Origin: a virus
Taxonomy: Duplodnaviria > Caudoviricetes
Virus record (IMG/VR): IMGVR_UViG_3300031998_000044
Span: 1-64,000 of that record
Length of the DNA stretch: 64,000 nucleotides
Strand: one strand, 5' to 3'
The notes beneath the pieces are model-generated. The model made no database searches. It worked only from the letters and a program-made list of their open reading frames with translations, and had not been told where the DNA came from. Each line of letters starts with the position of its first letter. Within the stretch, counting starts at the first letter, position 1. Positions 10,576-59,054 of the stretch are shown here, piece after piece. Both the position numbers and the translations under genes were made by a program.

Positions 10576-10662
10576 CAAAAATCGATATTTATTAAATCTA
10601 TTACAATATCCTTATGTATTTTGTAAGAATATATTACAGAATTGTTTTGTGTCTTTATATTG
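10576..10662. promoter_or_regulatory. Divergent promoter: central palindrome CTTATG-N5-TGTAAG (10611-10627) with -7-like elements 27 nt away on both sides
   Basis: Minus-strand GATTTTTG at 10583-10576 and plus-strand TTATATTG at 10655-10662, each separated from the palindrome by 27 nt. Lies between divergent cargo and tail operons. Confidence 0.6.
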
Positions 10663-10691
10663 TCATTATCATACTTTATTTTTGTTGCATT

Positions 10692-11384
10692 ATGATACAA
10701 GAGTACAATTACATATCAATAAATGAAATAGTAGCAAGATGCAAACGGCATCCTTACCTTGCTGATATTTCCTTTGAGAAAGTAGTACAATATGTGCTTG
10801 ACTTTTTCAGGTTAGTTGGTCTACCAAAAATGTTCCTTGATAAAGACGAAATTATCGAAATAAAAGATTACAAAGGATTGTTGCCTTGTGATTTGATTCA
10901 AATTATACAAATACGTGATTTGAAATCAAAATTGTGTTTAAGAAGTATGACAGATTCATTTTTACCTAAGTGTCGACACGAGCGTTCAGATTTGAGTTTT
11001 AAAACACAAGGCAATATCCTTGTAGTATCATTTAGGCATGGTAAGGTAGAAATTGCTTATAAAGCATTGCCTATTGATAAAGACGGTTATCCTATGATAC
11101 TGGATAATCCTGTTTTCCTTAGAGCATTAGAATTGTTCATTCAAAAAGAAGAGTTTGCTATATTGTTCGATTTATCGCAAATTCCTCAAGTAGTTTATAA
11201 TGAAAAGAAACAGCAATATGCGTTAGCGGTAGCAGCGTTAGGAAGTGAACTTACATTACCGAGCGTTTCAGAAATGGAAACTATCGGTAGAATGTGGAAT
11301 ACGCTTATTCAAAGAACTACGGACTTTGATAGTGCATTCAAACATTTAGGAGATAGAGAATATTTAAGAGTTTTAAAACCATGA
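10692..11384 (+). CDS. crAss-like tail ring/tubular protein
   Basis: MIQEYNYISINEIVARCKRHP...GLLPCDLIQI...ALPIDKDGYP resembles crAss ring proteins; ORF track start 10614, likely ATG 10692. Confidence 0.65.
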   Translation: MIQEYNYISINEIVARCKRHPYLADISFEKVVQYVLDFFRLVGLPKMFLDKDEIIEIKDYKGLLPCDLIQIIQIRDLKSKLCLRSMTDSFLPKCRHERSDLSFKTQGNILVVSFRHGKVEIAYKALPIDKDGYPMILDNPVFLRALELFIQKEEFAILFDLSQIPQVVYNEKKQQYALAVAALGSELTLPSVSEMETIGRMWNTLIQRTTDFDSAFKHLGDREYLRVLKP

Positions 11385-11995
11385 TACAAATAAACAATAT
11401 TAATATAAACAAAACAGGAGATAAGATGCGCATAGAAGCCGAAATTATTGGTGACAGCGCATTTGTTAATCGCTATATTGATAAGATATATATCGATACT
11501 CATGACAGTTATCTTAGTACTGGTCCGTCAGAAGATACCGTATATGAGCATACTGTTACGATTGAAGATGCTGCAGACGAACAAAATGCAACAGCATTGA
11601 TAGACAACGTTGAACGTGTTAGAAAACTAAAAATTGATATACCACAAGAAAGTATAGATGCATCTTTGCAAACTAACATGTTCGTAGTTTATCTTGAAGC
11701 AGGTGGAACTAATGCAGATACACCACCTGCAGATTGCTGTGAAAATATCGAACTTGTCGCAGGTTGTGTAATATGGATGAAACCTCTTTATAATGACTTT
11801 CTTGCTTGGTCAAGAGAATTGAACAACACATGTGAAGTACCGCAAAATTTCTTATATAAGTTCTTGCATTACCAAGCATTCCTTGTATCAGTTAGGACAA
11901 GGAATATTTTGGAAGCAATTAAAATTTATAATAAGCACTTTAAACACATTGTTTGCGGTTCTCATGGTAATCATCAAGGCTGTAATTGTAGATAA
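11381..11995 (+). CDS. crAss-like tail hub-type protein
   Basis: 204 aa with Cys/His C-terminus (GSHGNHQGCNCR), between ring protein and fibre gene; synteny-based. Confidence 0.5.
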   Translation: MIQINNININKTGDKMRIEAEIIGDSAFVNRYIDKIYIDTHDSYLSTGPSEDTVYEHTVTIEDAADEQNATALIDNVERVRKLKIDIPQESIDASLQTNMFVVYLEAGGTNADTPPADCCENIELVAGCVIWMKPLYNDFLAWSRELNNTCEVPQNFLYKFLHYQAFLVSVRTRNILEAIKIYNKHFKHIVCGSHGNHQGCNCR

Positions 11996-12001
11996 AAATA
12001 T

Positions 12002-12595
12002 ATGGACGAGATATTATTTAACGCTTTTGAAGTATTACTAAAGGATTACGACGAGTACGGTTATTACAACGAGAAAGAAGTTTTAAAAGTACTCGCTGTA
12101 ATAACCATGCGTGATATGATGATGTTTGACTTAGATGGTTATCTTGAAGATAAAGATATACGGTTAATCGAGCGAAATATATATTGCTTGCTTGGTGAAT
12201 CGTGTATATTGCCTTTGCGTGTCAACGACCACAAATGCTGTCTTACAGGAGATATTTTTATATCACCATCTTATCCATTATATTTTGGCATAGGTTATAA
12301 AAGATTTGTCGAACGTGTAAAAGAAGCAGGTGCTAACTGGTTTGCTGAATTAAGAAACCTGATGAAACTTGCAGTTATTTCAATTTCAATCCAAGGTATT
12401 GATATACCGAAAAATAATGATGGAAATGTAGATTTGTCAGTACCTACATTAAATGAATTTATACAAGCATATAACAAACTTCTATTGTTTATTAAAGACG
12501 ACAACGACAAGCTTTATAACAGTACTTATAATGCAGGTACAAAAACACTTACTATCAATCCAAAACCAACTAATACAGAACCTTATAAAGAATAA
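12002..12595 (+). CDS. crAss-like tail hub-type protein
   Basis: 197 aa, coupled to the tail fibre gene; internal CLLGESCILP motif; synteny-based. Confidence 0.45.
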   Translation: MDEILFNAFEVLLKDYDEYGYYNEKEVLKVLAVITMRDMMMFDLDGYLEDKDIRLIERNIYCLLGESCILPLRVNDHKCCLTGDIFISPSYPLYFGIGYKRFVERVKEAGANWFAELRNLMKLAVISISIQGIDIPKNNDGNVDLSVPTLNEFIQAYNKLLLFIKDDNDKLYNSTYNAGTKTLTINPKPTNTEPYKE

Positions 12596-12597
12596 TT

Positions 12598-25404: not shown

Positions 25405-26391
25405 ATGGCAACAGAAGCATTAGCAAAGAAAGAAAAATCGCAGTTTGAAATTACAATTACAGACAAAAGTATGAATGCATACCTTCAATCTGTAATAGGT
25501 AATAAAACACAAGAATTTATATCAAATATCATTGCATTGGTAAATAATAACCAAGGATTAGCGAATATCCCACCACAGGAGATTATCAATGCAGGTTTAC
25601 AGGCAACAGCGATAGGATTACCGTTAGAAAAATCATTAGGGAACGCATACGTAATACCGTATAAAGGTCACGCACAATTCCAAGTAGGAAAAGACGGATA
25701 TATTCAGTTAGGTTTAAGAACAGAAAAGTACAAGACAATCAATTGTTGTAGCATTATGTCAATTGATGAGTTGAAAAACAAAAACTATCTGTATGGAGAA
25801 CCATATGAAATATTCAGAGTAAAACAAGAACGTAAGCAGAAAAACCTAAAAGAAATAATCGGATATTGTGCTATTATTGTAACAACATGGGGATTTGAAA
25901 AATCATTATTCGTAACAACAGAAGAAATGAAAGCATTTTGCCAAAGATATTCTGAATCATACAAAAATGATAAATATGGAAAATCTTTGTGGAATACTGA
26001 TTTTAATGTAATGGCAGAAAAAACCGTATTGAAAAACTTATTAAAGCATTACGGCATCAAATCTCCTGCAATGAATATGGCAATCATTTCAGACCAAGCA
26101 GTAATCACAAACTACGACACTCAAACATTTGACTACATCGATAATCCTGCAAGTAATATTGAAGAAACAACAGCAGAAGTAATAAATGAACCTGTAAAAG
26201 AAAGCCCAAAAGAAGTAAAACAATTAACGCCGCAGCAAGAGGAATATAAAACTATGTATTTAAGTGGCGTATTCAATGACACAGAGAAAAAGAGATACAA
26301 TATATTATGGGCAGAAAATCAAGAAAAATGCTTGTCAGAAATGAGAGAAGCATACAATATGAAAACATCTCCTGAAAACGTCAGTAATTAA
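25405..26391 (+). CDS. recT: RecT/Bet-family single-strand annealing protein
   Basis: GLPLEKSLGNAYVIPYKGHAQFQVGKDGYIQLGLRT...W.TDFNVMAEKTVLKNLLKHYG are characteristic RecT motifs. Confidence 0.85.
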   Translation: MATEALAKKEKSQFEITITDKSMNAYLQSVIGNKTQEFISNIIALVNNNQGLANIPPQEIINAGLQATAIGLPLEKSLGNAYVIPYKGHAQFQVGKDGYIQLGLRTEKYKTINCCSIMSIDELKNKNYLYGEPYEIFRVKQERKQKNLKEIIGYCAIIVTTWGFEKSLFVTTEEMKAFCQRYSESYKNDKYGKSLWNTDFNVMAEKTVLKNLLKHYGIKSPAMNMAIISDQAVITNYDTQTFDYIDNPASNIEETTAEVINEPVKESPKEVKQLTPQQEEYKTMYLSGVFNDTEKKRYNILWAENQEKCLSEMREAYNMKTSPENVSN

Positions 26392-26626: not shown

Positions 26627-27174
26627 TGAATGCAGAAGAAATACAAAAAATATTAAAAAGCGAACATACGAAACAAATATTAGTAGGATATTATGATGAT
26701 TTCCCAGGGATAAATGACCAAACATTAAGAGAAATGTTATATAATTTATTTATGAAAATGTCGTATGACTACAATATGGAAATAAGACACGAATGGAGCG
26801 AAATATTAAATAGAACAATTTTTATTAAAAAATGGACGAATAATATTGAGTGTTATATATCAGTAGGAGTAAAAGCAAAGCATCCAAAAGTTGGAGAATT
26901 AGATGTTGTAGAAACAATCAGTATAAAAGAAAGAGATGGTAAAATATATGTAGATAATATTTACAAAGGACAAAGATATGATAACGGAGTATCATTTGGA
27001 ATAAAATGGATTGATAATGTTGAAGAAATATTGAAAGAAAACGGAGAAAAAATTAAGAAAATTCTGATAGATAATGATTTAAGAATAGAAGAAGACGAAA
27101 TTGGACATTTTATTGTATTAAACGGAACTAACAAAATCTACAGAATCGATGGAAAAGAAATACAGAAAAGTTAA
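26626..27174 (+). CDS. Hypothetical protein (182 aa)
   Basis: Coupled ORF in the replication operon. Confidence 0.55.
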   Translation: MNAEEIQKILKSEHTKQILVGYYDDFPGINDQTLREMLYNLFMKMSYDYNMEIRHEWSEILNRTIFIKKWTNNIECYISVGVKAKHPKVGELDVVETISIKERDGKIYVDNIYKGQRYDNGVSFGIKWIDNVEEILKENGEKIKKILIDNDLRIEEDEIGHFIVLNGTNKIYRIDGKEIQKS

Positions 27175-27796
27175 TTATTATTACAACTCAGAAATCCTCG
27201 ATAAGTTCAAAGCTATCGGGGATAAACTGATAGGAGAGTTTGTTATAGACAAGTACAACAAATTTGTGATTGAGAATATTATTCGTTATTATTTCGGAGA
27301 AGAATTTTTATGTAATATTATTGATAGCAAAGAAAAGAAAGAAGGAAAATTGAATAAAGGACTGTTTATCGCAGGAGAGTGCGGAACAGGCAAAACTACT
27401 TTGATGAGAATCTTTAAGAAGTTTTGTAAAGAATATAATCAAATATTTTATATTAACGACAAGCCTGTGTATCCTAACTGGGTAAGTTACAACGCACAGG
27501 AACTCTGTAATATCTATCGAAATGGCGGAAATATTGAATCCCTGTACAACGCTCCGATAATCTCCATAGATGATTTCGGTACTGAACCTGAAAGTTCACA
27601 ATACATGGGAAACAAGATTGACGTATTAAGGGAGATATTAGAAGTGAGGTCTGACAAGAACGTTATTACGTTCATAACATCAAATCTAACTCCCGATGAT
27701 TGTATTACAGAAAGAAAGTATGGAGAACGATTAGTAAGCAGATTAAAAGAGTATAATTATTTCGCATTAAGAGGAGACGATAGGCGAGAATCATAA
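27149..27796 (+). CDS. DnaC/IstB-like AAA+ ATPase (helicase loader)
   Basis: Walker A GECGTGKT, Walker B ISIDDFGTE, TFITSNL, YGERLVSRL. Confidence 0.8.
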   Translation: MEKKYRKVNYYYNSEILDKFKAIGDKLIGEFVIDKYNKFVIENIIRYYFGEEFLCNIIDSKEKKEGKLNKGLFIAGECGTGKTTLMRIFKKFCKEYNQIFYINDKPVYPNWVSYNAQELCNIYRNGGNIESLYNAPIISIDDFGTEPESSQYMGNKIDVLREILEVRSDKNVITFITSNLTPDDCITERKYGERLVSRLKEYNYFALRGDDRRES

Positions 27797-31884: not shown

Positions 31885-32145
31885 ATGAACGCAAAGCAAA
31901 TTCAAAACCAATACAAGTCAATCAAGGAGAATTATCCTAATATGATATTGCTATTCAACGTAGGCAGTAACTACATTGCACTTCGAGATGATGCCAATGT
32001 TGTTGCCAAGGTATGTGGAATAGAGAAAATAAATACTATTGTAAAATTTAATTGTAACAAACTTGATGACTATTTGTTCAAACTTGTACGGTCTGGACAT
32101 AAAATAGGAGTTTGTGAAGAATTACCAAAACCAAATGACAAATAA
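31885..32145 (+). CDS. Stand-alone MutS domain I-like protein
   Basis: YKSIKENYPNMILLFNVGSNYIALRDDANVVAKVCGI...YLFKLVRSGHKIGVCE matches the MutS N-terminal mismatch-binding domain pattern. Confidence 0.7.
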   Translation: MNAKQIQNQYKSIKENYPNMILLFNVGSNYIALRDDANVVAKVCGIEKINTIVKFNCNKLDDYLFKLVRSGHKIGVCEELPKPNDK

Positions 32146-34224: not shown

Positions 34225-35906
34225 AAAAGATTCTATATACCTCGATGATTACGCTGAGGATATGTTAAATAATAAAGAAACAAACAAAATATTAATTTAC
34301 GTTAAATAATAGGAGATTAGTAAAATGGAAAAACACGACGTACCTACAAATATGATAATCAAAACCGATATTGGTGATATATTGGTACAAGAAGCAAAAC
34401 CTAACGTACACCGTTGCACAGACTGTGTTGGATTAAAAAATGCTCCAATATGTCATTTTTTAATCTGTCGAGCAGAAGAGAGGAAAGACGGCAAAAACGT
34501 AATTGTAATACCTTATAAAGAAAAATAATATGACAAACGAAAAATTAGTTTTAAGCATAGTGCCTGCCGACAACTTAACAGCGTACAATTGTGCGTTAGA
34601 AGTTGCAAGGAGAAAAGATGAGGAGTACAATATAAAGCCAATCTCCGAACTCGGTGGTTGGCACACAGAACCGCCGACAGAGGACGGCTGCTATCTCGCA
34701 GAAACATTCCGTATTCCATACAAGAATTGTCATTACATAGTCGCAGAGTACGACACAAACGCAAAATGTTGGTACGATGAAGCATACGAAAACGAAATTG
34801 AAATAAAAAGATGGAAGAAAATCTAACAATAGAACAAAAAGCCAACGCCCTGATTGGATGTGCCAAAGTCGGTGGTTGCAAAAGTCAAGATGTCAACTTC
34901 TGCAAAAAAGCATACAAAGACGGCGGATATATGTGCAAAACCAAAAAGATGTTGCTTTTAATGGCTGACTTTGTTATCGACAAAGCCATTGATTGGCTGC
35001 GAGAAAACGCCACCGACTACCTCGACAAGATTGAGGATTGTACTGGTGGTAACGAATGGGAATCTCAGACTTGGAGTTTCCCAGAGGAATTTTTCAGACG
35101 ATTTAGAAACGAAATAAAAAATGGAAACAAAGAAAGAAACATCTCCTGAAACTGAATTATACATTTGGCAAGTAATCGGCGATAATCTCGGAATAAAAGA
35201 AGTCGGAGAGCAGATTACAAAAGGCGAGGAATACGCATTCAAGAATCCTATTGTCTTTAAAATTGCTGCTGAAATATGTAACTATATGAATGAGCAGTTA
35301 AACGAGAAAATGAAGTTAATAAAGACTTTGACCGATGAAAACGAGAAAATAAAACAAGAACACAATAAATGGAAAAAGGAAGTAATTGATTGCACAGAAT
35401 TAAATGAACTATTAACAGCACAAGTAGTATGTAGAGACGAAGAAATCGAAAGATTAAGCAAACGTATTAAGGAGATATCAAAACAACTTTATTGCTCTGA
35501 TAAAAATCAAGAAAAAGAACACGGAAAATTATTAAATCAAATTGCATTATTTAATCAGCAAGTTAAAAAACGTAAAAAAGCAGAAAATGAATTAAAAATA
35601 GCAAAAGAAGAAATAGCAAGATTAACAGAACGCATTAAGAATCTTGAAGCCGACCTCGAAGAAGGAGGTTTTAACGATGAAAGAAACTTTATTTAACGAG
35701 AATTGTATGAAACTTAAAACAGACGATAATGCCAATAATGGTTAAATTTCTCATCATTTTATCAAGTATTATTTGTATCATCTTTGGAGTAATATGTATA
35801 ATCGGAAGCCTATTGTACATACTTAACAATCAGACGTACACATCATTATTTTTATTAATCGTAACATTTTTAGGCAGCGAATCCATTGACATAGGTTGTG
35901 AAACCA

Positions 35907-37115
35907 TCAAAAAGATAACACGAAATCTATAACCTTCCTATTAGCAGAATCCACCTTATTATAATCAAACTTAATGTAAATATCTGTAACTGTATTGCCT
36001 TCGTGTCCAAGTGCGTGAGCAATGACATCACGGCTAATATCTAACTGTGAAGCGAGAGTAGCCCAAGTATGTCTTGCCCAATATGTACTTAGTTCAGGGA
36101 ACAACGGAGATACAGTTTTCTTTCCACATTCGTCATATTGAACATCTCCGACACGCTTCAAGTTCTTATTAAATCGTTCCAAGAAGTCCTTGTAGTTGTG
36201 ATAACCGTCAAGGATATTCAAAAGATAATCGACACCTTTATATATATTAAGAATATCCAACGCTTCGGGTTCAAGTTTAATTGAGTACAGACGTGATGTC
36301 TTTGCTCTTTTAAATTCCAATCTACCGTTAACAATATTGTCTTGCGTACAGTGAAGTAAATCAACCATATTGATACCTATAAGATAAAAATCAAGAATAA
36401 AGAGGTCTACATATTTTTTAAGATAGTCCTCAACAGGATAGGTCATAAACATACGTAGCTCAATAACTGTTAACGAGCGTTTACGTGTCGGTATAGGTCG
36501 AATTTTAAATGTACGGAAAGGATAATGCGAAGTGATTTCGTTATCTATGGCATCATTAAAAACAGCACGAATATTACGTAAATGAACATTGCGACCGTTT
36601 TTAGAATTAGAGGTCAAGGCTAAGTGATTCTCGAAATCAGTAAGCCAACCTTTATTCAAATCTTCAAATCGCTTAAAATCAATATTTTTGTCGAAGTCGT
36701 GAATACGTTTTAATGTGAATAAGTAGATGTTTTTTGTAGTAACGTTTAATTTTCGATTAGCAAATTTTAAAAAATAATTACAAAACAAATTTTCATCAGT
36801 AGGCTTATTATCAGACAATTGCAAATCTATTGCTGCCTTTACTTCATTAACATCGTTAAAATTTATATTTTTATTTACAAACGAAAATATTATTTTATCA
36901 ATTTTATTTTTAAACTCCAAGATAAAGGACATTAATGTTTCTTTATTAGGCACACGAAGAATTTTTTGTGATACGTTGTCCCAACAGTTAGGTTGCAGTT
37001 TTATTTTTAGTGGAAAGTAGACGGCTTTTTGCTTGTAGGTAACAGCCAATTTTAATGATGCAGGTGAGCCGTCCTTCGTGTGCCTTTTATCAAGGTAAAA
37101 TTTTGTCGTTATCAT
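35907..37115 (-). CDS. int: Tyrosine recombinase/integrase, Bacteroidales type (arm-binding N-domain)
   Basis: N-terminus MITTKFYLDKRHTKDG...LAVTY, NIRAVFNDA, catalytic STYWARHTWATLA...LGH...TDIY. Likely start 37115 (track 37145). Confidence 0.92.
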   Translation of the reverse strand: MITTKFYLDKRHTKDGSPASLKLAVTYKQKAVYFPLKIKLQPNCWDNVSQKILRVPNKETLMSFILEFKNKIDKIIFSFVNKNINFNDVNEVKAAIDLQLSDNKPTDENLFCNYFLKFANRKLNVTTKNIYLFTLKRIHDFDKNIDFKRFEDLNKGWLTDFENHLALTSNSKNGRNVHLRNIRAVFNDAIDNEITSHYPFRTFKIRPIPTRKRSLTVIELRMFMTYPVEDYLKKYVDLFILDFYLIGINMVDLLHCTQDNIVNGRLEFKRAKTSRLYSIKLEPEALDILNIYKGVDYLLNILDGYHNYKDFLERFNKNLKRVGDVQYDECGKKTVSPLFPELSTYWARHTWATLASQLDISRDVIAHALGHEGNTVTDIYIKFDYNKVDSANRKVIDFVLSF

Positions 37116-37139
37116 AACTTCAAATTTTAAACAAATTTT

Positions 37140-37330
37140 TTGCAAGTATTCTTGCTAATTTAATTTTTAATTTATAATTTAGTGCTTTGAATTACGATGA
37201 TAACAGGTTGATAATGTGCCATAAAAAGTCGGGGCAGAGAGATTCGAACTCTCGACCTTCTGCTCCCAAAGCAATATGTTCAATCCTGTGTTTCATCAAC
37301 TTACAAATGCATTGCAAGTAAATTGCAAGT
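37140..37330. repeat. TTGCAAGT direct repeats (37140, 37312, 37323) flanking the tRNA fragment: putative integrase arm sites
   Basis: Three exact 8-mers, one on the int side and a tandem pair on the other side of the core. Confidence 0.55.
37228..37273 (-). other. 3' half of tRNA-Pro(TGG): putative attP core
   Basis: Reverse complement TGCTTTGGGAGCAGAAGGTCGAGAGTTCGAATCTCTCTGCCCCGAC covers the anticodon arm (TGG), T-arm and 3' acceptor strand. No D-arm or 5' half upstream; about 110 nt from the int start. Confidence 0.8.
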
Positions 37331-37344
37331 TAATCGCAAATTTC

Positions 37345-37361
37345 CTTACAAATTTCGTAAG
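37345..37361. promoter_or_regulatory. Palindrome CTTACA-N5-CGTAAG in the int/dnaB divergent region
   Basis: One mismatch to the consensus; no -7 element at the 27-nt spacing on either strand. Confidence 0.45.
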
Positions 37362-37409
37362 GCAAAAATGAGCATTAATTTGCAATAAACAAAAAAATAA
37401 ACACAAAAA

Positions 37410-38738
37410 ATGGAAGAAAAGAAACTACCTACAAGCGTAGAAACTGAAAAACTTATTCTCGGTGCAATTTTAATAGAGAAAGATGCAATTGAGAATGTTG
37501 TAGACATACTTAAACCTGAAATGTTCTACGATACAGCAAATAAAAGTATCTACGAAGCTTGTCTAAAACTCTACAATGGCAACAAACCAATCGACATTTA
37601 TACTGTTAGCGAACAACTTGCAAAAGATAACAAGTTAGAAGAAGTCGGTGGAAGTTACTATGTTGCTACACTAACTGAGAATGTAGGCTCTGCAAGTCAT
37701 ATCGAATATCATTCTAAAATTGTCGTAGAAAAGTATATCAGACGTAAATTGATTAAAGAATCGTATGAGATAGGACAAGATGCATATAACGCAGCAGTTC
37801 CATTGGAAGAAATTGTCGAACGTCAAACAAAAATGATTGATACACTTGGTCAACATTTTGCAAATGAATCGGCAGAAACAATAGAAACTATATTCCCGAA
37901 GGTATTAAAGGAAATCGAACAAGCATCACAGCAAAAGTCAGGAATTAGCGGAATAAGCAGTGGTTTTACTCAAATTGATAGCCTTACACACGGTTTTCAA
38001 CATACAGATATGATAGTAGTAGGTGCAAGACCATCTATGGGTAAGACTGCATTTGCTTTATCGCTTATGATTCGAATGGCTATGAAAGGTGTAAGATGCT
38101 TGTTATTTAGCCTTGAAATGTCGAAAGTAGCGATTACCAAACGTATCACGTCTATGATAAGCAATATTACAGGTGATAAAATTCTTAGCGGAAGATTATC
38201 CGTAGACGATTGGAATGCACTCGAAGGAGCAGCACCAACAATTATGGGATTGCCTATAATTATAGACGATGAAGGTGGAATCAGCACACTGCAACTCAAA
38301 ACTAAGTGCCGACAGTATATGAAGAAGTATGGTTTTGATATTATAATGTTAGACTATCTTCAACTAATGAAAGATACAGAAACAAAATCAGACAAGAAAA
38401 ATGATGAAGTTTCGGAGATAAGTCGCAAAATCAAAAACATAGCAAAGGAACTCAATGTACCATTCATTGTACTAAGTCAGTTGAACAGAAACTTGGAAAG
38501 CAGACCCGACAAAACTCCTATCAATGCAGATTTAAGAGATAGTGGCTCTATCGAACAAGATGCAGATGTAATAATGATGCTATATCGTCCAGAAGTTTAT
38601 GGAATAGAACTTATGCCTAATGGATTAATTACCGACAAATTAGCACAAGTTATTATTACTAAACAAAGGAATGGCTCATTAGGAACAATTGACCTTCAAT
38701 TCGACAAAGAGAATACCCGATGGACGGAGATGGAATAG
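37410..38738 (+). CDS. dnaB: Replicative DNA helicase
   Basis: LPTSVETEKLILGAIL N-domain, GARPSMGKT, IMLDYLQLM, LSQLNR, DLRDSGSIEQDAD, KQRNG. Confidence 0.95.
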   Translation: MEEKKLPTSVETEKLILGAILIEKDAIENVVDILKPEMFYDTANKSIYEACLKLYNGNKPIDIYTVSEQLAKDNKLEEVGGSYYVATLTENVGSASHIEYHSKIVVEKYIRRKLIKESYEIGQDAYNAAVPLEEIVERQTKMIDTLGQHFANESAETIETIFPKVLKEIEQASQQKSGISGISSGFTQIDSLTHGFQHTDMIVVGARPSMGKTAFALSLMIRMAMKGVRCLLFSLEMSKVAITKRITSMISNITGDKILSGRLSVDDWNALEGAAPTIMGLPIIIDDEGGISTLQLKTKCRQYMKKYGFDIIMLDYLQLMKDTETKSDKKNDEVSEISRKIKNIAKELNVPFIVLSQLNRNLESRPDKTPINADLRDSGSIEQDADVIMMLYRPEVYGIELMPNGLITDKLAQVIITKQRNGSLGTIDLQFDKENTRWTEME

Positions 38739-39031
38739 AGATGTGCAAAGGATGTAGTTTCTATATTAGTAAAGGTGTTTGCAGTTTAAAACACATAAAA
38801 GTAAGTTCTAAGACCGCTGCCTGTTCGTCGTATAGCGACGTAAACACTGTCCCGGTAAGAACTGAAACTTGTGCCACTTGCAAACACCATTTTTTACCTG
38901 ACAAAGAATACCCTAATTATTCGCTGTATAGAGATTACAAAGGAGATTTTTTTCTCTGCAAATGCAAGTTTCACAAAGAAGCAAAATTTTTAAACAAAGA
39001 TTATTGTAAAAAGTATGAAAAAAGCAGATAA
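38720..39031 (+). CDS. Cys-rich putative metal-binding protein
   Basis: Two CxxC...C...C units. Confidence 0.45.
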   Translation: MDGDGIEMCKGCSFYISKGVCSLKHIKVSSKTAACSSYSDVNTVPVRTETCATCKHHFLPDKEYPNYSLYRDYKGDFFLCKCKFHKEAKFLNKDYCKKYEKSR

Positions 39032-39563
39032 TAACTTCATATTCAAATACGACGAAATGAAAGCAATAGAACTTCAAAACAATTACAATAAAATCAAGGT
39101 AAAATATCCTGATGCAATTTTGCTATTTCGCGTAGGCAACAACTTCATTGCACTTCGAGATGACGCAAACATTGTAGCAAAAGTCTGCGGAATACAGGAA
39201 ACAAACACGATTGTTAAATTCAGTTACAACAAACTTGACGACTATTTGCCCAAACTTGTACGGTCGGGACATAGAACGGCAGTTTGTGAAGAACTCCAAC
39301 TCCCAAAGAAAACGCCACACCAAATATCAAACGAATGGCAAAAGTTTGAAATCAAATATGGAGTACCAAGGTTTAGCCAACTTCTTGACAACAACCTTGC
39401 ACTACTTGGAAAATTTGTTATCGACATAATTAAATTTGACGATTGGTTGCACAAACAATTCGGCGACTATGAATCAGAAGACAAGTCTATGAGCGGCATT
39501 TTGTTGGAGAAGTACGGATACGACATACAACAATATGTCAAACAAATGATTGAAACTTTATAA
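39015..39563 (+). CDS. MutS domain I-like protein with C-terminal extension; paralog of 31885..32145
   Basis: YNKIKVKYPDAILLFRVGNNFIALRDDANIVAKVCGI...YLPKLVRSGHRTAVCE. Confidence 0.7.
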   Translation: MKKADNNFIFKYDEMKAIELQNNYNKIKVKYPDAILLFRVGNNFIALRDDANIVAKVCGIQETNTIVKFSYNKLDDYLPKLVRSGHRTAVCEELQLPKKTPHQISNEWQKFEIKYGVPRFSQLLDNNLALLGKFVIDIIKFDDWLHKQFGDYESEDKSMSGILLEKYGYDIQQYVKQMIETL

Positions 39564-50710: not shown

Positions 50711-51304
50711 ATGGTTACACTAAATGACATAAAGAACGCAAATAATATTTGTTCTGTGTTTAAACGTCACAGATATAACAAGGGAATATTACTTGATGCT
50801 TTCTTGTTTGATACACTTGAAGATTTCGACATAAATTGTCATTATAAATACGATTTCGATGTTTATTTGACAAAGTTTGGAATAAATTTGCAAAGACCGT
50901 ATGTTTGGGAATATTACCAACAACAAGAATTAATATTATCTCTACTTTTTGAAAAACAAGTTGAAAAGGTTGTTGCTATATTGCACAATAGCGATTTAAA
51001 CCGTAAAAATGCAGTAATGTTTATCATTGACGGAAAGCAACGATTATTAACAATTTATAAATTTATACACAATGAGTTCCCTATAAATCTTAATGGGAAA
51101 CAAGTATACTTCAAAGATTTTGATAAGGATGCTTACTACTTTTTCCGTAGTCGAGTAAATTATATTCTTGCTGATGTATATTACTCTTATGATAATGAAC
51201 CGATTTCTGACGAGGAAAAAATAATCATATTCAATTTTTATAACTTCTCAGGCACTCCACAGACTGAAGAACATAAGAAAAAACTTGAAGCATTATTACA
51301 ATAA
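50711..51304 (+). CDS. DUF262/ParB-like domain protein
   Basis: LQRPYVW...LILSLL, IIDGKQRLLTIYKF, F..YNFSGTP. Confidence 0.7.
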   Translation: MVTLNDIKNANNICSVFKRHRYNKGILLDAFLFDTLEDFDINCHYKYDFDVYLTKFGINLQRPYVWEYYQQQELILSLLFEKQVEKVVAILHNSDLNRKNAVMFIIDGKQRLLTIYKFIHNEFPINLNGKQVYFKDFDKDAYYFFRSRVNYILADVYYSYDNEPISDEEKIIIFNFYNFSGTPQTEEHKKKLEALLQ

Positions 51305-52094: not shown

Positions 52095-53519
52095 ATGAAT
52101 ATAAATACAAATGACTATGTAGTAGTAAATGGAAAAAAATATTACGCAGAAGGTGGTATAAAATATTTTGATAATGGAGGACCAACTAAAAAAGAACTTA
52201 AACAATTTGTTGATTGGAATTCCAATCGTATGAATAAAAAATCATTAAGAGGACCAACTTCATGGCGTTCAGGGGATGAAAAAGACGAAGATTTTGCAAA
52301 GCAATTTATTCAGAATATGCAAAACTATGTAAATCCAAATGATAAGAATAAATTGACATTAACTCAAGCAATGCATATTCAAGATTTATTAGATTCAGTA
52401 CCAAAATATGTAAAAGACGAAGATTTATACGATGTATATAATAGTGAAGGTAAATTTGCTGGATTTGAAGATAGTCCTGAACTTATGAATTTACGTTGGG
52501 CAGATAAATATAATAATATTGATGATATTATTAGTAATCGTAGTCTAATGTTTAAAAATGTATATAATTCACCTGAATTTCAAAATAAAGTAAAAGAATT
52601 TCTTTCTACAAAACGTGGTAATGGTTCATATATTGAATATAAACATCCAATAACAGGTGATGATATGTATTATAGGTTTTATATTGGTAAAGATGGGGCA
52701 GGATTTGTACCTGATTTTAATGCAAAAAGTAAAGGATTTGAGCCTATTGTTACACTTAGAGGAAATGGAATAGAAAATACAGAAGAATATGAAATTGAAC
52801 CTGAAAAAAGAGAAATTTATAATGGTGAAGAAATCGTAATTCCTGCAAAAAAAGGTAGAAGATTTATTATTAACCAAAATGAAAAAAATAGAATAGACAA
52901 CGGTTATAGTTATGGAAATTTTTATGAAGGTTCTGAATCTAATCCTGTAAATCTTGGAACAGGAGAAAAAATAGAGTATTATAACAATTTAAAAAATTTA
53001 AATGCCAACGACCAATATAAACAAATAAAGGAAAACCATGCATACGGTGGTCCTACTACTCGTCTTTTCGCAAGCGGCGGTGATATGGGTGCTATTCCTA
53101 TGGGTGAACAGCCTGACTACAATATGGTAGGCGCAGGTGGAAGCCACGAAATGAATCCGCAAGGCGGTGTGCCATACGGAATGAACACAGACGGAAGCCA
53201 AAATATGGTAGAACAAGGCGAAGTTTCTGTTGGAAACAACGTATTTAGTGACCGCACAGCAATATCGCCCGAACTTTGTCAACAACTTGGATTACCCGAA
53301 GGTACATCACACGCACAGGCAATGCAGCAAATTGAAGCATTGTATGAGCAAGGACAAATTGGCGAACAAGAATACCAAGAAATCTCCCAAATTCTTTTCC
53401 AAGACCAAGAAGCGCAAAAACAAGGTGGTGGTATGCCGCAACCTCAAAACGAAGGTATTCAGCCTGAAATGGTAGCACCCGAAGGTTATGCTTGGGGTGG
53501 TCGTAGAAGATGTAGATAA
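52095..53519 (+). CDS. crAss-like virion cargo protein (GGSHExNPxGG domain)
   Basis: GAGGSHEMNPQGGVPYG...NMVEQGEV...VFSDR is a conserved crAss cargo motif; several aromatic-x-GG motifs. Confidence 0.7.
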   Translation: MNINTNDYVVVNGKKYYAEGGIKYFDNGGPTKKELKQFVDWNSNRMNKKSLRGPTSWRSGDEKDEDFAKQFIQNMQNYVNPNDKNKLTLTQAMHIQDLLDSVPKYVKDEDLYDVYNSEGKFAGFEDSPELMNLRWADKYNNIDDIISNRSLMFKNVYNSPEFQNKVKEFLSTKRGNGSYIEYKHPITGDDMYYRFYIGKDGAGFVPDFNAKSKGFEPIVTLRGNGIENTEEYEIEPEKREIYNGEEIVIPAKKGRRFIINQNEKNRIDNGYSYGNFYEGSESNPVNLGTGEKIEYYNNLKNLNANDQYKQIKENHAYGGPTTRLFASGGDMGAIPMGEQPDYNMVGAGGSHEMNPQGGVPYGMNTDGSQNMVEQGEVSVGNNVFSDRTAISPELCQQLGLPEGTSHAQAMQQIEALYEQGQIGEQEYQEISQILFQDQEAQKQGGGMPQPQNEGIQPEMVAPEGYAWGGRRRCR

Positions 53520-53542
53520 TTTCCATAGAGTGTTTATTTTTT

Positions 53543-53574
53543 GCCGTTAGGTACTTCACCTGACGGCTTTTTTT
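53543..53574 (+). terminator. Rho-independent terminator
   Basis: GCCGTTAGG/CCTGACGGC plus T run. Confidence 0.7.
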
Positions 53575-53701
53575 ATTACAAAAATAGTAAGGATAATTGT
53601 TGGTTATAAATTACCATAATTTTATATTTGTATCTGTTTTTGAAATTTTTATATTATTATTCCTCAGCCGTCGGTAGTTTTTATCGACGGCATTTTTATT
53701 A

Positions 53702-53753
53702 CTTACACATTTTGTAAGGTATTAAAAATCAACGGTAATATATAGTATTTTTG
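53702..53753 (+). promoter_or_regulatory. Promoter: perfect CTTACA-N5-TGTAAG plus TATTTTTG
   Basis: Palindrome 53702-53718; -7 element 53746-53753; follows a hairpin at 53667-53697; ATG at 53779. Confidence 0.7.
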
Positions 53754-53778
53754 TACATCTTATAACAATAATTACAAT

Positions 53779-53982
53779 ATGGGAAATAATATAAGAATTT
53801 TTAAAAATGAAACATTCGGAGAAGTTAGAGTAACCGAATTGAATGGAGAGCCAATGTTTTGTTTGGCAGATGTAGCAAAAGCGTTAGAATATGCAAACCC
53901 TGCTAAGGCTGTTATAGACCATTGTAAAGGGGTTACCATTTTAGAAACCCCCACTACAGGTGGTATACAGCATATTAAATAA
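53779..53982 (+). pseudogene. Truncated BRO-N (antirepressor-like) gene
   Basis: IFKNETFGEVRV...GEPMFCLADVAKALEYANPAKAVIDHCKG ends prematurely; LLIKSK continues in another frame. Confidence 0.65.
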
Positions 53983-54030
53983 GGCAATATTATCATTATT
54001 AATTAAATCAAAGATTAATCCTTTTTAAAT

Positions 54031-54224
54031 ATGGATAACACAAAACCAAAATATTATCAAAAAGGCAAAATTGAAGTTTGGGATTTTATTAAAGACCAAA
54101 ACTTAGATTTTTTTGCAGGAAATGTAATTAAATATGTATGCCGTACAAGGACAAAAACGGCTTAGAAGATTTAAAAAAGGCACAAGTATATCTTGAAAAA
54201 CTGATTAAAAATATGCAAGAATGA
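54031..54224 (+). pseudogene. Frameshifted DUF3310-family gene
   Basis: MDNTKPKYYQKGKIEVWDFI...GNVIKYVCR, then a one-base loss; KDKNGLEDLKKAQVYLEKLI continues in another frame to a TGA overlapping ATG 54221. Intact paralog at 61954..62190. Confidence 0.75.
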
Positions 54225-54937
54225 GTACATTCAGAGAAATTCTATATATGATTCAAGATGAGTGTAAATACGATACTGATGATTCGTATTACACACATGA
54301 ACATATATTATGGCTAATGCAACGTTATCGTTCACTACTTTTTACACAAAAATACGGTGGTGTTAACGGCAACCTAAAAAAGAAAATTCCTGATAGCAAT
54401 CAACAGGAGATATGTATAGAATTAATGAAGGTTTATGGCAATAATAACGCCCGCTGTGACAGTGGACTATATCTTACGTCTACTAAGCCAATACCGAGCA
54501 TAATGCCGTATACAAAACCAAAACTATACACAGTTGATATGTACTCAACAATTAGCCACATTGACTTTGTAGGCTACGAGCAAATGAAATATAGTGGCAC
54601 AAATAAATATTTCAAGAATATCATTTATGGTAGTATTGCACCAAATAAACATTTATTTTTAAAGGCGCAGAATCCCACTTTTTCTAACCTTGGAAAGATT
54701 AAAATGTCTGCTATATTCGAAGATATTACCGAAGCAGCTAAACTCTCTTGTGACGAAAATTGCGATACTTTGGATAATTCATTTCCTCTCGAAGATGCAC
54801 TTATTCCTGTATTGGTGCAATCAGTAGTCAAAGAACTGACTGAAAGATTAGTTGTACCTGAAGATAAGTCAAACAACGCAGACGACAACCAAAACGAAAA
54901 TATGTACGCTAATGGCAACGCAAGACCTACAGAATAA
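54221..54937 (+). CDS. crAss-like tail ring protein
   Basis: MSTFREILYMIQDE...QEICIELMKV...KMSAIFED...FPLEDALIPVLVQSVVKEL, directly upstream of the muzzle gene. Confidence 0.7.
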   Translation: MSTFREILYMIQDECKYDTDDSYYTHEHILWLMQRYRSLLFTQKYGGVNGNLKKKIPDSNQQEICIELMKVYGNNNARCDSGLYLTSTKPIPSIMPYTKPKLYTVDMYSTISHIDFVGYEQMKYSGTNKYFKNIIYGSIAPNKHLFLKAQNPTFSNLGKIKMSAIFEDITEAAKLSCDENCDTLDNSFPLEDALIPVLVQSVVKELTERLVVPEDKSNNADDNQNENMYANGNARPTE

Positions 54938-57900
54938 TGCACAACAACAAGGTAATGTGCAATCTTTTAAGATTCATGGAATGAAGCATGATTTATCAGA
55001 ATCTGCTTTTGAAAATGAGTTTGCATTTGAGAATATGAATATGCGAATTAATATCGTAGATTCAGATAATACTCTATTGAATCTTACAAATGAAAGAGGA
55101 ACTAAAGCACTCAGTTTAACTTTGCTCGGCAGACCTATTGGTTGTAAAAAATATGCTAATGACAAGATATTATTAATTACAACGCAAGACGGTTCTTCAT
55201 CAACAAAGGACCACATTTATAATATAAAAATCAATAGTAGCGATGTTATTAGTGCTGACGATTTAACAAATGGAAAGAACTATGGCTTCTCATCAAACTA
55301 TCCTATAGAGATTGAACACTATCACGATGGCGAAAAAGATTTCTTCTATCTCGCTGATGGTTTAAATAATTTTAAGACGTTTTGGATAGAAAATAATACA
55401 CTAAAACCGAATGTAAACAACATTGACTACAATAAAGAAATAAGTGGCACAGATTCAATTTTATACAGAATAATAAAGGCACAAAATGCTGAATTTTATT
55501 CTGGTGTAATTGTTTATTGTTTTTGCTATGTTACAGAACAAGGTCATAAAACAGGTATAATTGATATGACACCTGTAATAAAATTGACTAACCATGGTTT
55601 ATCACATGGTTTAGAGCCAAACAAAAAAACAAACGTAGCAATTAATATCAAATGCCTAAAATTAAGTTCTAATTTTAAAAATGTAGAAATATATTCATTG
55701 TACCGCAGTTCCCTTGATGGAGATATGATAGTTAGGAAGGTAACATCAATTAACATCAAAAATTCATCTATAAAAGCACAAACAATTATTGATGATTTTA
55801 ATGGCGAGAGAATTTTAACTCCTACGGAAATACAAAATTATTATGCAGACGCTAACTATGCTATACAAAATAGGAATATAGATTTTGTCGATGAAAATAA
55901 AGGAGATATAATCTCTTACCAGGAACTTTTAACTCGTGTTAATTCAGTACTTATACCAAGTACATTGTGTTCTAAAAATAATACTTTGTTTCTTGGTAAT
56001 ATAAAAACAAATAATTTCACTGCACTTAAATCTTTAATTTCGATTAGCGGTGGCAAGACAGTAACAGATAAAGGTTCATATAATGAGAACTATTTTTATA
56101 GTAAGAACAAATATTATGCAGGTGTACAACTACAAGACAAATACGGCAACTGGACACCTGTTATTGGAGTAAGTCAAATAACATACAAACAAAACGTTGT
56201 ACTTAGTTCTACGTTTGTAAATGCTGCAATTAATCAAGGATATATAGCAGCAAGAGGAATGATGTTAGATGATAAGAGAGTTCGTAACTCTATTGCTCAA
56301 GGAATAGGTCTGAAAACAATCAAAATAGAAGAAGGCAAATATGGTGTAGATATATATGCAGCATACTCACATACTCTCCAAAATGCAATTTTTGAAGGAT
56401 TTGATGCTGAAAATCGACCTAATCTTGCTCCAGCAGAAGACACGCCATATTATCCTCCATATTTGGATGCTAAAGGTTATTCTATTGGATATACTTCATT
56501 TTATGATTTATATTCTCCAGATGTCGAATTTGATGAAAATTTCTATTTGGATAGCAGTGTAACACATAAAATTGAATATGCTTCCTGTGTTCCAACAGAA
56601 TATTACCCAGAGATTGATGTAACACTAAGTAGTAACAATGGTGTTTTATTCAATAATTCTGACGAAATAGGTAAAGCTATATACGATACTGATTTGAATA
56701 AATTTTATTGGATTGATTGTATTGCAAACTATCAGAACGCATTACAATTACAATTCGGAGGAGATAGCCTAAGCCAAACAAATATTTCATTGACACCTTT
56801 ATATTTTCTTGATTCTTATGATTTATACGAAGAACCAACAAAATTTAAAATATATGTTTGGCAGCCATCTGGAAGTTTAAATGATTCAGACGGCAGAGTT
56901 TCCGTTCTAAATACTAAAAAAATTGGTTGGTATTCAGTTTGGAGCGCAGGTGCGTCAGGCAGTGGTACATATTCAACCACACTAAATAAACAAATTTATA
57001 CATTTGATGGAACTAATTCGATTATACCATTAAATTATACTACTGATTTAGGAAGTGAAACAAAAACTTATTGTGGCATAGTAAATCTAAAACTTTTCCA
57101 AAAAACATGGACTGTTGGAACTGTAACAAATGATGATTCGAGTTCTGGATATTTTGACAGTTACAATGAACAAACAATTTTTTATGATTTTGCTCGTTCA
57201 TTCATGCGTTCTACATCATTTGTAGGTCAGCCTATAGAATTTCAATATCCACAAAGAGGTGATGGACAAGCTGATTATGAATATTATAAATTCTTAATAA
57301 ACTATACTGTACACCAAAAAATACTTGATGATAATATAACAGTTAATGCTAATGCAAAAGTTTATAAATGGGATGATACATCAATACATATACATTCATA
57401 TAGTAATATAAATGGTTGGCATGACAAAGATTTTATAAACCATAGTGGTGATGGATTACCTATACTTGTATCTAACAATTTCTCAAGGAAGAATCAAATA
57501 ACAGTAACATATAGGACAAATAAACATCTTATTGCAGAACTTAATGGAAACAATGTTAAGATAAAATTTTTAATCTCTGATAATGAATCGTTAAATAACG
57601 TAGATATTGAAAGAGGTAGATGGATTGTAGCATCGCCAAAAGACATATTAACACAAAATCAAGGATTAACACTTAATATGAATCTCGATGATGTGTATGT
57701 ATGGAATTCAGGAGAAAGACGTTATCAATCTCTGATTTCTGAGCCATATTCACAATATGATACGAATCAAGTTTGTTATCTTGCATCAGTAGAAGGAGTA
57801 AGCTCTTATATCAATCCTTTTTGTAGGTGTGATAAATTTGTTAACACTACAAGCCCGATGAATATGTCTAATGAGTTCTTTAATAAGATGAATATGGTCT

Positions 57901-59054
57901 ACAATCAGAAGAACAACTTTTTCATATACACAGGCATTACTGCAGATACTGTAACAGATGATACGTTGGATAACACTATTTTATATTCTGATTTAAAAGT
58001 GTCTAATGAGAAAGAAGATTCATTTATAAATCTTCCAACAACAAATTTCTTTACAATAGACAGTTCCATAACAAAAATTAACAAGCTTATAACGTATAAC
58101 GATAAAATACTATGTTTTAGCGATAATGCTATATCACAGATACTTTATAACGAAAATGTTGTAATTAATACTGAATCTGTACAATCTCTTGGATTAGCTT
58201 CTACCGATAAAGTTACAGGTTCGCAATTAATAACCAACACTTACGGTTGTTTGAACAAATGGAGTATAGGTATATTCAATAATGACTTGTACTTCATCGA
58301 TGATTTGAACAATAAATTAATGGTATATAATGGCGAATTTTTGGCTTTGAACGAGAAATTAGGTATAGAAACACTAAACAATAAGCTGATTAAAAATAAA
58401 GTGTGGAATCCAAATTCTTGGTACAATACTAAGTTTAATATTGATAAATATGCCAAAGACGTACATTACACAACAAGTGATTTTGACATAGCATTTAATA
58501 GCGAATTAGGGTCTTTCACAAGTATATACAGTTACGAAAACATATCGTTTATTGAAACAATAGGCAGTCATACAATAGCATTTAAATACAATAGTGGTAA
58601 TACAAACGCAGTATATTTGCGTGAAGGAAACTATAATCAGTTCTTCGGAACTTATAAACCATTCTATACGACTGTCATTGTCAACCAAAACAGCATAATC
58701 AATAAGACGTTATCGTATATTGAATATAGTTCAGAAGCATATTCAATGTCGAATAATACATTAGTTCCTCAACATAATTATACATTTAGCCATATCGAAT
58801 TTTGGAACGACTATCAAGAATCAAAAGATAGCCACAAAGTAAAGATTGATTACAAAATGTACGGTCAATCATTACTTAAACGAAAATTCAGAATATGGAG
58901 AATAAATCGTTTTAGAGATTATACACGATTGCCTGGACGTAATTACGATATGTTATCTAACACTTGGCACTATATGAAGTTGCTAACTGATGGTACTGCG
59001 TTAGAACAGAATTACAAACTTACATTCCATTGGTTGAACGTATACTACCGATAA
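54912..59054 (+). CDS. crAss-like muzzle / tail stabilisation protein (~1380 aa)
   Basis: N-terminal FKIHGMKHDLSESAFENEFAFENMNMRI, central YYAGVQLQDKYGNW, C-terminal LKRKFRIWR. Track start 54852, likely ATG 54912. Confidence 0.75.
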   Translation: MATQDLQNNAQQQGNVQSFKIHGMKHDLSESAFENEFAFENMNMRINIVDSDNTLLNLTNERGTKALSLTLLGRPIGCKKYANDKILLITTQDGSSSTKDHIYNIKINSSDVISADDLTNGKNYGFSSNYPIEIEHYHDGEKDFFYLADGLNNFKTFWIENNTLKPNVNNIDYNKEISGTDSILYRIIKAQNAEFYSGVIVYCFCYVTEQGHKTGIIDMTPVIKLTNHGLSHGLEPNKKTNVAINIKCLKLSSNFKNVEIYSLYRSSLDGDMIVRKVTSINIKNSSIKAQTIIDDFNGERILTPTEIQNYYADANYAIQNRNIDFVDENKGDIISYQELLTRVNSVLIPSTLCSKNNTLFLGNIKTNNFTALKSLISISGGKTVTDKGSYNENYFYSKNKYYAGVQLQDKYGNWTPVIGVSQITYKQNVVLSSTFVNAAINQGYIAARGMMLDDKRVRNSIAQGIGLKTIKIEEGKYGVDIYAAYSHTLQNAIFEGFDAENRPNLAPAEDTPYYPPYLDAKGYSIGYTSFYDLYSPDVEFDENFYLDSSVTHKIEYASCVPTEYYPEIDVTLSSNNGVLFNNSDEIGKAIYDTDLNKFYWIDCIANYQNALQLQFGGDSLSQTNISLTPLYFLDSYDLYEEPTKFKIYVWQPSGSLNDSDGRVSVLNTKKIGWYSVWSAGASGSGTYSTTLNKQIYTFDGTNSIIPLNYTTDLGSETKTYCGIVNLKLFQKTWTVGTVTNDDSSSGYFDSYNEQTIFYDFARSFMRSTSFVGQPIEFQYPQRGDGQADYEYYKFLINYTVHQKILDDNITVNANAKVYKWDDTSIHIHSYSNINGWHDKDFINHSGDGLPILVSNNFSRKNQITVTYRTNKHLIAELNGNNVKIKFLISDNESLNNVDIERGRWIVASPKDILTQNQGLTLNMNLDDVYVWNSGERRYQSLISEPYSQYDTNQVCYLASVEGVSSYINPFCRCDKFVNTTSPMNMSNEFFNKMNMVYNQKNNFFIYTGITADTVTDDTLDNTILYSDLKVSNEKEDSFINLPTTNFFTIDSSITKINKLITYNDKILCFSDNAISQILYNENVVINTESVQSLGLASTDKVTGSQLITNTYGCLNKWSIGIFNNDLYFIDDLNNKLMVYNGEFLALNEKLGIETLNNKLIKNKVWNPNSWYNTKFNIDKYAKDVHYTTSDFDIAFNSELGSFTSIYSYENISFIETIGSHTIAFKYNSGNTNAVYLREGNYNQFFGTYKPFYTTVIVNQNSIINKTLSYIEYSSEAYSMSNNTLVPQHNYTFSHIEFWNDYQESKDSHKVKIDYKMYGQSLLKRKFRIWRINRFRDYTRLPGRNYDMLSNTWHYMKLLTDGTALEQNYKLTFHWLNVYYR

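Follow-up and report, generated by a model that had tools for sequence, protein, structure and literature searches.

A tRNA-Pro attachment site and tyrosine integrase carried on the genome of a crAss-like phage from the ruminant gut

CrAss-like phages are the textbook example of abundant gut phages that persist without lysogeny, and the explanations proposed so far for their persistence are phase variation, a carrier state and a phage-plasmid form. The core papers on the group either state that lysogeny is impossible or leave integrases unmentioned, and the characterized members of Steigviridae are described as unable to lysogenize. Recent surveys report integrase annotations in mouse-gut Intestiviridae and Zeta lineages, rarely in Steigviridae, as well as twelve crAss-like sequences among predicted pig-gut prophages. 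No published description of a crAss phage attachment site (attP) was found in the literature. Elsewhere, integration at tRNA genes is well established; NBU-type elements of Bacteroides use tRNA 3′ ends, and Williams's 2002 classification reportedly recognizes an anticodon-loop type of attP in tRNA-targeting integrative elements. The stretch considered here is the first 64 kb (64,000 nucleotides; the window) of IMG/VR record IMGVR_UViG_3300031998_000044, a circularly closed assembly of 90,711 bp that represents a complete 90.7-kb crAss-like phage from the ruminant gut, and the element in question is an integrase gene with its attP near the middle of the window. An earlier, sequence-only reading of this locus had started from the premise that characterized gut crAss-like phages are generally described as persisting without integrase-mediated lysogeny; the view that crAss-like phages lack integrases needs softening, as recent surveys report integrase modules in some Crassvirales lineages. 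In the locus described below, an integrase of the classical tRNA-attP kind sits on a crAss chassis.

Anatomically the cassette is a complete attP-int module of the lambda type. Its parts, together with the phage gene that borders it, are as follows:
35907..37115, minus strand: tyrosine integrase of 402 aa (Pfam and PHROG matches, family alignment, structural model, codon substitution analysis)
37116..37227, minus strand: P′ arm, between the core and the integrase start, with one arm-type repeat at 37140-37147
37228..37273, minus strand: attP core, corresponding exactly to tRNA-Pro(TGG) positions 29-73 plus one base and found exactly in six Bacteroidales genomes
37274..37409, minus strand: P arm, between the core and DnaB, with two direct repeats at 37312-37319 and 37323-37330 and an inverted copy with one mismatch at 37299-37306
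37410..38738, plus strand: DnaB-type replicative helicase (Pfam DnaB_C 3e-90, DnaB 4e-32), the first phage gene past the P arm

The open reading frame (ORF) of the integrase (35907-37145, minus strand) opens at a TTG, and the ATG at 37115 is the likely start, giving the 402-aa protein a family-typical N-terminus, MITTKFYLD. The protein consists of an N-terminal arm-binding domain (Arm-DNA-bind_5, PF17293; 41.7 bits, cut-off 22.6), a SAM-like core-binding domain (Phage_int_SAM_5, PF13102; 49.9 bits, cut-off 22.3) and a catalytic domain, for which the Pfam match to Phage_integrase (PF00589) is weak (17.2 bits, under the cut-off of 27.1); a match to the PHROG_1 integrase is obtained at 2e-23. The catalytic residues R270, K272/K280, Y345-W-A-R348, H371 and Y380 all fall in invariant columns of an alignment of 11 family members (this integrase and ten homologues, several of them from integrated elements), and every residue that is invariant in the family is retained. 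An AlphaFold2 (AF2) model with a predicted local distance difference test score (pLDDT) of 84 shows a three-stranded sheet at the N-terminus and a helical domain after it, and its best PDB matches are the lambda Int tetramer (1z1g) and Tn1549 Int (6en0), with E about 2e-7; no relative at the sequence level was found in the PDB. Relative to a 93%-identical allele from another rumen sample (L008), the gene has 65 synonymous and 8 non-synonymous codon differences, which corresponds to a ratio of non-synonymous to synonymous substitution rates (dN/dS) of 0.03 at a dS of 0.35, and the N-terminal 190 codons compared with those of L067, a relative discussed below, give a dN/dS of 0.06 at a dS of 1.77. 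To judge from these codon comparisons, the integrase is under strong purifying selection.

The first base of the core is the third one of the anticodon stem; from there the core takes in the anticodon loop, the T arm and the 3′ acceptor strand and ends one base past the discriminator, with inverted TGC/GCA stem halves placed around the 7-nt anticodon loop. It is single-copy in the phage genome, and ARAGORN detects no whole tRNA in the window. The distance from core to integrase ATG is 112 nt, and the two lie on the same strand with the tRNA 3′ end facing the ATG, an orientation that would rebuild a tRNA with int adjoining and that is also found, with a whole tRNA, in the integrated relative L009. 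The repeat TTGCAAGT occurs on the plus strand at 37140, 37312 and 37323, three copies within 190 bp, against a background of 12 copies in the whole window where 4.3 are expected. In the P′ arm the copy at 37140-37147 reads TTGCAAGT on the plus strand and ACTTGCAA in the integrase sense, and it stands 25 nt upstream of the ATG. Both attP arms carry such arm-type repeats, distinct from the core (three exact copies and one inverted near-copy of ACTTGCAA in all), and these are treated as putative sites. A search of 37090-37420 for the Bacteroidetes -7 box (TAnnTTTG) returned none.

On the far side of the P arm, DnaB starts 137 nt past the core, and the same neighbor is present in an independent 90,725-bp contig and in L067; small plus-strand ORFs lie on the left. 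Since the GC content of the cassette is indistinguishable from that of its flanks, the cassette is not a fresh import. The sequence-only reading had described an intact integrase, a 46-bp 3′ part of tRNA-Pro(TGG), three repeats around it and phage genes on both sides, and all four observations hold, the 46 bp being the exact last 46 nt of a 76-nt tRNA gene at six bacterial loci.

These loci bear on the identity of the host. With one genome per species for about 185,000 species in GTDB, the exact 46-mer is present in only six genomes, all of them Bacteroidales metagenome-assembled genomes (MAGs) from ruminants (yak, goat, sheep and cattle) and all within a single GTDB family of 25 species; in each of them the 46-mer is the 3′ end of a tRNA-Pro(TGG) gene. 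Three further members of the family have a variant tRNA-Pro with compensating changes in the T-stem, and the same variant is carried by a related phage, both within its attP core (L010/L011) and when integrated (L009), so that each phage's core tracks the tRNA of its own host. Additional ties to the family come from one of its members, G409, in which a prophage has about 8 early genes in common with this phage, at 50-77% amino acid identity, and in which one segment of another contig reaches up to 89% nucleotide identity to it. The sequence-only reading had proposed a comparison of the 46-mer with Bacteroidota tRNA-Pro(TGG) genes and had suggested that the core could identify the host; the exact matches narrow the host to one small uncultured ruminant Bacteroidales family. 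A near-exact 29-nt match in the host-candidate genome G004 was considered as a CRISPR spacer and set aside, as it is actually a simple 11-nt tandem repeat.

Related integrases with 49-62% identity are situated directly downstream of intact tRNA genes in bacterial contigs; in two of the three cases examined the tRNA is tRNA-Pro(TGG) and the geometry is that of this phage. The clearest layout is that of L009, a 17-kb bacterial contig on which metabolic genes are followed by tRNA-Ser(TGA), an intact tRNA-Pro(TGG), 145 bp of intervening sequence, a 62%-identical integrase and phage early genes. L010 and L011 are the same phage in attP form, with the 3′ part of the tRNA only and non-tRNA sequence before it. 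The integrase of L060 (52% identity) is likewise beside tRNA-Pro(TGG), that of L059 is beside tRNA-Gly(CCC), and the IMG/VR relatives L012 and L016 are beside tRNA-Pro(GGG). In G409, an attR-like junction places non-tRNA sequence next to a tRNA-Pro 3′ half that is followed by tRNA-Ser (L083 10842-11218, equivalent to G409:C52 40842-41218), and on a second contig of the same genome an integrase homologue adjoins another tRNA-Pro-like core. Given these placements, the integrase family does integrate at tRNA genes, mostly tRNA-Pro, in the geometry of this phage. Two side observations concern G409: the integrase at G409:C9 39779-41259 is apparently frameshifted around residue 270-276, and a 101-aa XRE-like gene without a Pfam match lies beside the junction.

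Among attP-form relatives, L067 has the gene order DnaB, P arm, core, P′ arm, int, as here. Its core is identical at 46 of 46 positions, whereas the proximal P arm (38 nt) and the P′ arm (112 nt) are only 47% and 51% identical, respectively. ACTTGCAA is nonetheless retained in both L067 arms, and the P-arm copy at 37323-37330 is among those conserved. A perfectly identical core between such diverged arms means either constraint or repeated re-copying from the host through integration and excision. The more distant L010 has another repeat, TTTGCAG, at the corresponding places in its arms, as would be expected if arm sites co-evolve with the arm-binding domain. Beyond these, close relatives of the integrase were found neither in GTDB genomes nor in IMG/VR, the integrase region has no DNA-level match in INPHARED, and scanning IMG/VR for the 46-mer and for the junction of P arm and core in L010 returned nothing. 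A JGI metagenome scan gave only L067 and one remote match, and an IMG/VR search based on DnaB gave relatives at no more than 37% identity, which carry no information on synteny. The integrase matches 36 INPHARED records, and none of the top matches to the phage's major capsid protein (MCP) is listed among them, on lists that were not compared in full, record by record. One record, Dulem virus 40, was considered as a crAss-like carrier of the integrase; the integrase matches, but the annotation is not crAss-looking.

The crAss nature of the genome rests on its virion genes. Proteins of the window match the Pfam families Crass_capsid (1e-135), crAss_AuxCP (3e-63) and crAss_MUZ (2e-90), as well as the tail and cargo families Ring1 (8e-63), Ring2 (1e-47), THA, THB and CARGO1/2, and the large terminase subunit (TerL) matches PHROG_6681 at 8e-98. 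Over its full length the MCP is 47-50% identical to those of Steigviridae (DAC15, IAS virus, cr85_1), a comparison that concerns the MCP only. The ends of the record (G000) overlap exactly over 127 bp (1-127 and 90585-90711), the length expected when an assembler with k=127 closes a circle, so that the assembly is circular and the overlap does not represent virion terminal repeats. Between 10.6 and 59 kb all genes are on the plus strand, except for the integrase (35907-37115, minus strand) and a few short minus-strand ORFs without a family. The remaining features referred to here are:
10614..12595, plus strand: crAss tail ring protein 1 and tail hub proteins A and B (Pfam), virion genes left of the early arm
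25405..26391, plus strand: RecT, with 61% amino acid identity to L009, in an arm collinear with integrase-bearing temperate phages
around 27149-27796: DnaC-like loader and AAA protein, part of a lambdoid-style replication set in the early arm
35729..35932, plus strand: ORF of 67 aa that converges on and overlaps the 3′ end of the integrase, without family match
52095..59054, plus strand: crAss cargo protein 1, ring protein 2 and muzzle protein (Pfam), virion genes to the right of the early arm
1-7152 and 88890-90659, minus strand: giant ORF of about 2,970 aa across the record ends, considered in connection with the virion-packaged RNA polymerase of Crassvirales (ORF call only)

By its position only, the 67-aa ORF is a candidate directionality or regulatory factor. 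The crAss tail genes form two blocks on the plus strand (10614-16197 and 52095-59054) with a 36-kb early arm between them, an unusual order for a crAss-like genome; the left block consists of Ring1, THA, THB and a 1,199-aa fibre-like protein, and the right block of Cargo1, Ring2 and Muzzle. The auxiliary capsid protein (59138-60439) has an extra C-terminal domain of the CHB_HEX_C_1 / Fn3-associated carbohydrate-binding type, and this addition may be a capsid decoration for glycan adhesion. A 197-aa protein (50711-51304) matches the N-terminal, DUF262-type domain of GmrSD restriction endonucleases at 2.6e-11 and may be a phage-borne nuclease or anti-competitor gene.

The integrase sits within the early arm (window 16300-52000), which also encodes RecT, the DnaC-like loader, DnaB, a DUF3127 single-stranded DNA-binding protein and two proteins with a MutS_I domain. 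Unlike in typical crAss-like phages, no DNA polymerase or primase was recognized in the arm with Pfam or PHROGs. The arm is partly collinear with L009, L010 and L075 and partly common to the siphovirus prophage of G409. Siphovirus-type temperate phages of that host family, with which this phage has the arm in common through mosaic exchange, probably supplied the cassette. The two MutS_I proteins, at 31885-32145 (86 aa) and 39015-39563 (182 aa), are small and contain MutS domain I only, and their homologues recur in related early arms (L075).

The mechanism proposed for the cassette involves a heterobivalent integrase. With its N-terminal domain it would bind the predicted ACTTGCAA arm sites, of which the P arm has two direct copies and an inverted one and the P′ arm a single copy. 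The core-binding and catalytic domains would bind the two halves of the anticodon stem on either side of the 7-nt loop within the 46-bp core. Strand exchange, at a predicted crossover position, would take place with the matching, identical stretch of the tRNA-Pro(TGG) gene, a single-copy gene in hosts of the uncultured ruminant Bacteroidales family. At the left junction the order would be host 5′ part, phage-borne 3′ part, P′ arm and int, and an intact tRNA would be rebuilt there, since the entire 3′ part of the tRNA is contained in attP. The window would represent the unrecombined, excised circular form.

The claim of the sequence-only reading that this phage integrates into the host tRNA-Pro gene draws support from the anatomy of the cassette, the exact identity of core and target, the selection visible on int and core and the presence of related integrases at that same tRNA. 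It is likely that the crAss-like phage carries a lambda-type module for site-specific integration that works or did so until very recently, and the phage can very probably integrate into the chromosome of hosts from an uncultured rumen Bacteroidales family; lysogeny by the phage itself is given a somewhat lower probability than integration competence. The more far-reaching reading, to which slightly better than an even chance is assigned, is that of a genuinely temperate crAss-like phage, in which a chassis of crAss virion and putative virion RNA polymerase is combined with a lambdoid arm for early functions, replication and lysogeny that was taken from siphovirus prophages of the same host family, and which lysogenizes by integration at tRNA-Pro(TGG). 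Related lineages would then be repeatedly losing the integrase, with the group caught between temperate and obligately lytic life.

A number of observations weigh against this reading. The search of genomes for junctions gave no attL, attR or lysogen of this phage among GTDB representatives, and none in the 25 host-family species. At all six loci with the exact 46-mer the tRNA is followed by host sequence, the integrase is absent from the five of these six genomes that were searched, and no crAss capsid gene is present in the host family (0 of 25 genomes); Crass_capsid was found in 3 of 401 Bacteroidales genomes. The identical integrase occurs on five contigs, and each of the four long ones has the attP form. 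One observation on the favorable side comes from Logan run SRR9008936, where the contig on the int side ends at 37273 and that on the DnaB side starts at 37244, with a 30-nt overlap inside the core, as expected if a k=31 graph forks where the core meets the P arm; the core thus has at least two left-hand partners in this run, although the host tRNA gene alone could explain the fork. Damage to the integrase is also seen in three related lineages: L008 has an in-frame TGA at codon 319 (979-981) with the remaining frame intact, the catalytic half in L067 is replaced by an unrelated 249-aa gene (900-1144), and in L075 (1397-2605) the gene is in two pieces and lacks an upstream tRNA core. Unless some of the cases are sequencing errors, they suggest that integration has been lost repeatedly. 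Furthermore, none of the 75 ORFs searched with Pfam and PHROG belongs to a repressor, antirepressor or excisionase family, and many small ORFs have no family at all; this absence is weak evidence, since the XRE-like protein at the G409 junction is also missed by Pfam. Finally, those integrated relatives whose virion genes can be typed are siphoviruses and not crAss-like, so that integration of a crAss-type genome is something we infer rather than see. The virion genes of the G409 prophage are of siphovirus type (Terminase_3, a Phage_cap_E capsid and a 1,664-aa tape measure protein), and as the RecT and integrase contigs of the L009 type are all under 20 kb, its virion genes are not visible and it is not called crAss-like.

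Two side observations belong to these searches. Several assemblies of this and related phages are interrupted at the tRNA core or no more than about 100 nt away from it (the starts of L010, L011 and L074 and the SRR9008936 contigs), in keeping with graph forks at a core that phage and host have in common. The best Crass_capsid match in the Bacteroidales genomes (7.5e-85) is on G374:C25 (L069-L073), a free-standing contig of 96,369 bp in a Bacteroidales MAG that has no terminal overlap, lacks this integrase family and encodes one tRNA-Pro(GGG). This contig is probably no prophage but a phage genome that was binned with the MAG.

An unlikely but substantive alternative is that the cassette is baggage that arrived along with the early-gene arm through recombination with a temperate siphovirus, now unused and decaying, in a phage that is lytic, carrier-state or episomal like other crAss-like phages. 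Breakage in 3 of about 8 related integrase lineages would fit this history, as would the lack of recognized lysogeny-control genes, the failure to find a lysogen when all long contigs are in attP form, and the clearly mosaic relationship of the arm with siphovirus prophages. Cultured crAss-like phages are moreover described as incapable of lysogeny (PMC8375218; PMC10983915). Decay is, however, difficult to reconcile with a gene that is intact here and encodes an identical protein on five contigs, with a dN/dS of 0.03-0.06 that extends to the part after the L008 stop codon, or with a perfect 46-bp core that lies between arms diverged to about 50% and still matches living host tRNA genes exactly; GC content like that of the flanks speaks against recent import as well. 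It is far less probable that the tRNA piece is a decayed phage-borne tRNA gene and that the recombinase serves another role, such as Cre/Xer-like multimer resolution of a circular episome in a phage-plasmid lifestyle, even though the genome closes as a circle and the prototypic crAssphage has been proposed as a phage-plasmid (PMC10983915). Rather than being decayed, the fragment is exact to host genes and spans the classic attP block from the anticodon stem to the tRNA 3′ end. Its single copy leaves no second core for resolution, the arm-binding domain and flanking arm repeats are absent from simple resolvase-type tyrosine recombinases, and integrase homologues are found at the tRNA junctions of integrated elements. 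The circumstance that gives this explanation some initial appeal is that tRNA genes are frequent in crAss-like phages.

The sequence-only reading had itself raised the concern that the int region might be chimeric with the crAss structural blocks, and a temperate-phage segment misjoined to a crAss-like genome during assembly would account for an early arm that resembles temperate siphovirus modules without typical crAss replication genes. Yet crAss virion genes flank the arm on both sides and on the same strand (Ring1/THA/THB at 10.6-12.6 kb; Cargo1/Ring2/Muzzle at 52-59 kb), the assembly closes on itself, a separate 90,725-bp ENA contig has the same gene order, three further contigs have the same neighborhood, and L067 independently has the order DnaB, attP, int. 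Because the flanking genes and the independent assemblies agree, the arrangement is a natural mosaic and not a misassembly; a chimeric assembly is unlikely, and as a full explanation of the locus it is given the smallest chance of those weighed here. Several consequences follow from the cassette itself. The integration module is fully specified (int, 46-bp core, arm sites and a predicted bacterial attachment site, attB, in named MAGs), which makes crAss lysogeny by integration directly testable. It provides a sequence-based host assignment for an uncultured phage, and it exhibits module exchange between crAss-like podoviruses and temperate siphoviruses within one host family. The integrase and attP could also become a site-specific integration tool for rumen Bacteroidales.

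Among known systems, lambda Int with its attP (POP′) and Tn1549 Int share the three-domain architecture of this integrase, and arm-type repeats on either side of a short core beside int are common to them. Differences are found in the protein, which has no sequence-level similarity to any solved structure and in which, as throughout its family, the first His of the H-x-x-R box is Tyr. The site also differs from that of lambda in that the core is the 3′ part of a tRNA and not an intergenic site, and no Xis-like gene is recognized here. Also among the closest counterparts are tRNA-targeting elements of the anticodon-loop type, in which attP likewise includes the tRNA 3′ part, the gene is restored on integration, and int adjoins attP and reads away from it; the carrier in the present case, however, is the 90.7-kb genome of a crAss-like podovirus and not a lambdoid phage, an integrative and conjugative element or a mobilisable element.

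The same integrase family and domains are found in temperate Bacteroides phages, with 43% identity for BS-TP2 and 36% for Bacuni_F1/F2/F4, and in uncultured Bacteroidales prophages (L009 at 62%, L060 at 52%, and G409), with which early genes are also common. Several members of the family lie 145-175 bp downstream of intact tRNA-Pro genes. Where virion genes are visible in those temperate phages they are of siphovirus type, whereas here they are the crAss capsid, muzzle, ring and cargo genes. These virion protein families are the ones found in Steigviridae, the beta crAss-like phages (crAss001, DAC15/DAC17, IAS virus, cr85_1), from which this phage departs in that no DNA polymerase or primase is recognized and a lambdoid set of DnaB, loader and RecT is present instead. 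For Carjivirus communis, the phage-plasmid lifestyle is likewise a proposed way of persisting long-term in its host, but that phage has no integrase and no integration signal (PMC10983915), and in the phage described here the persistence device would be chromosomal integration.

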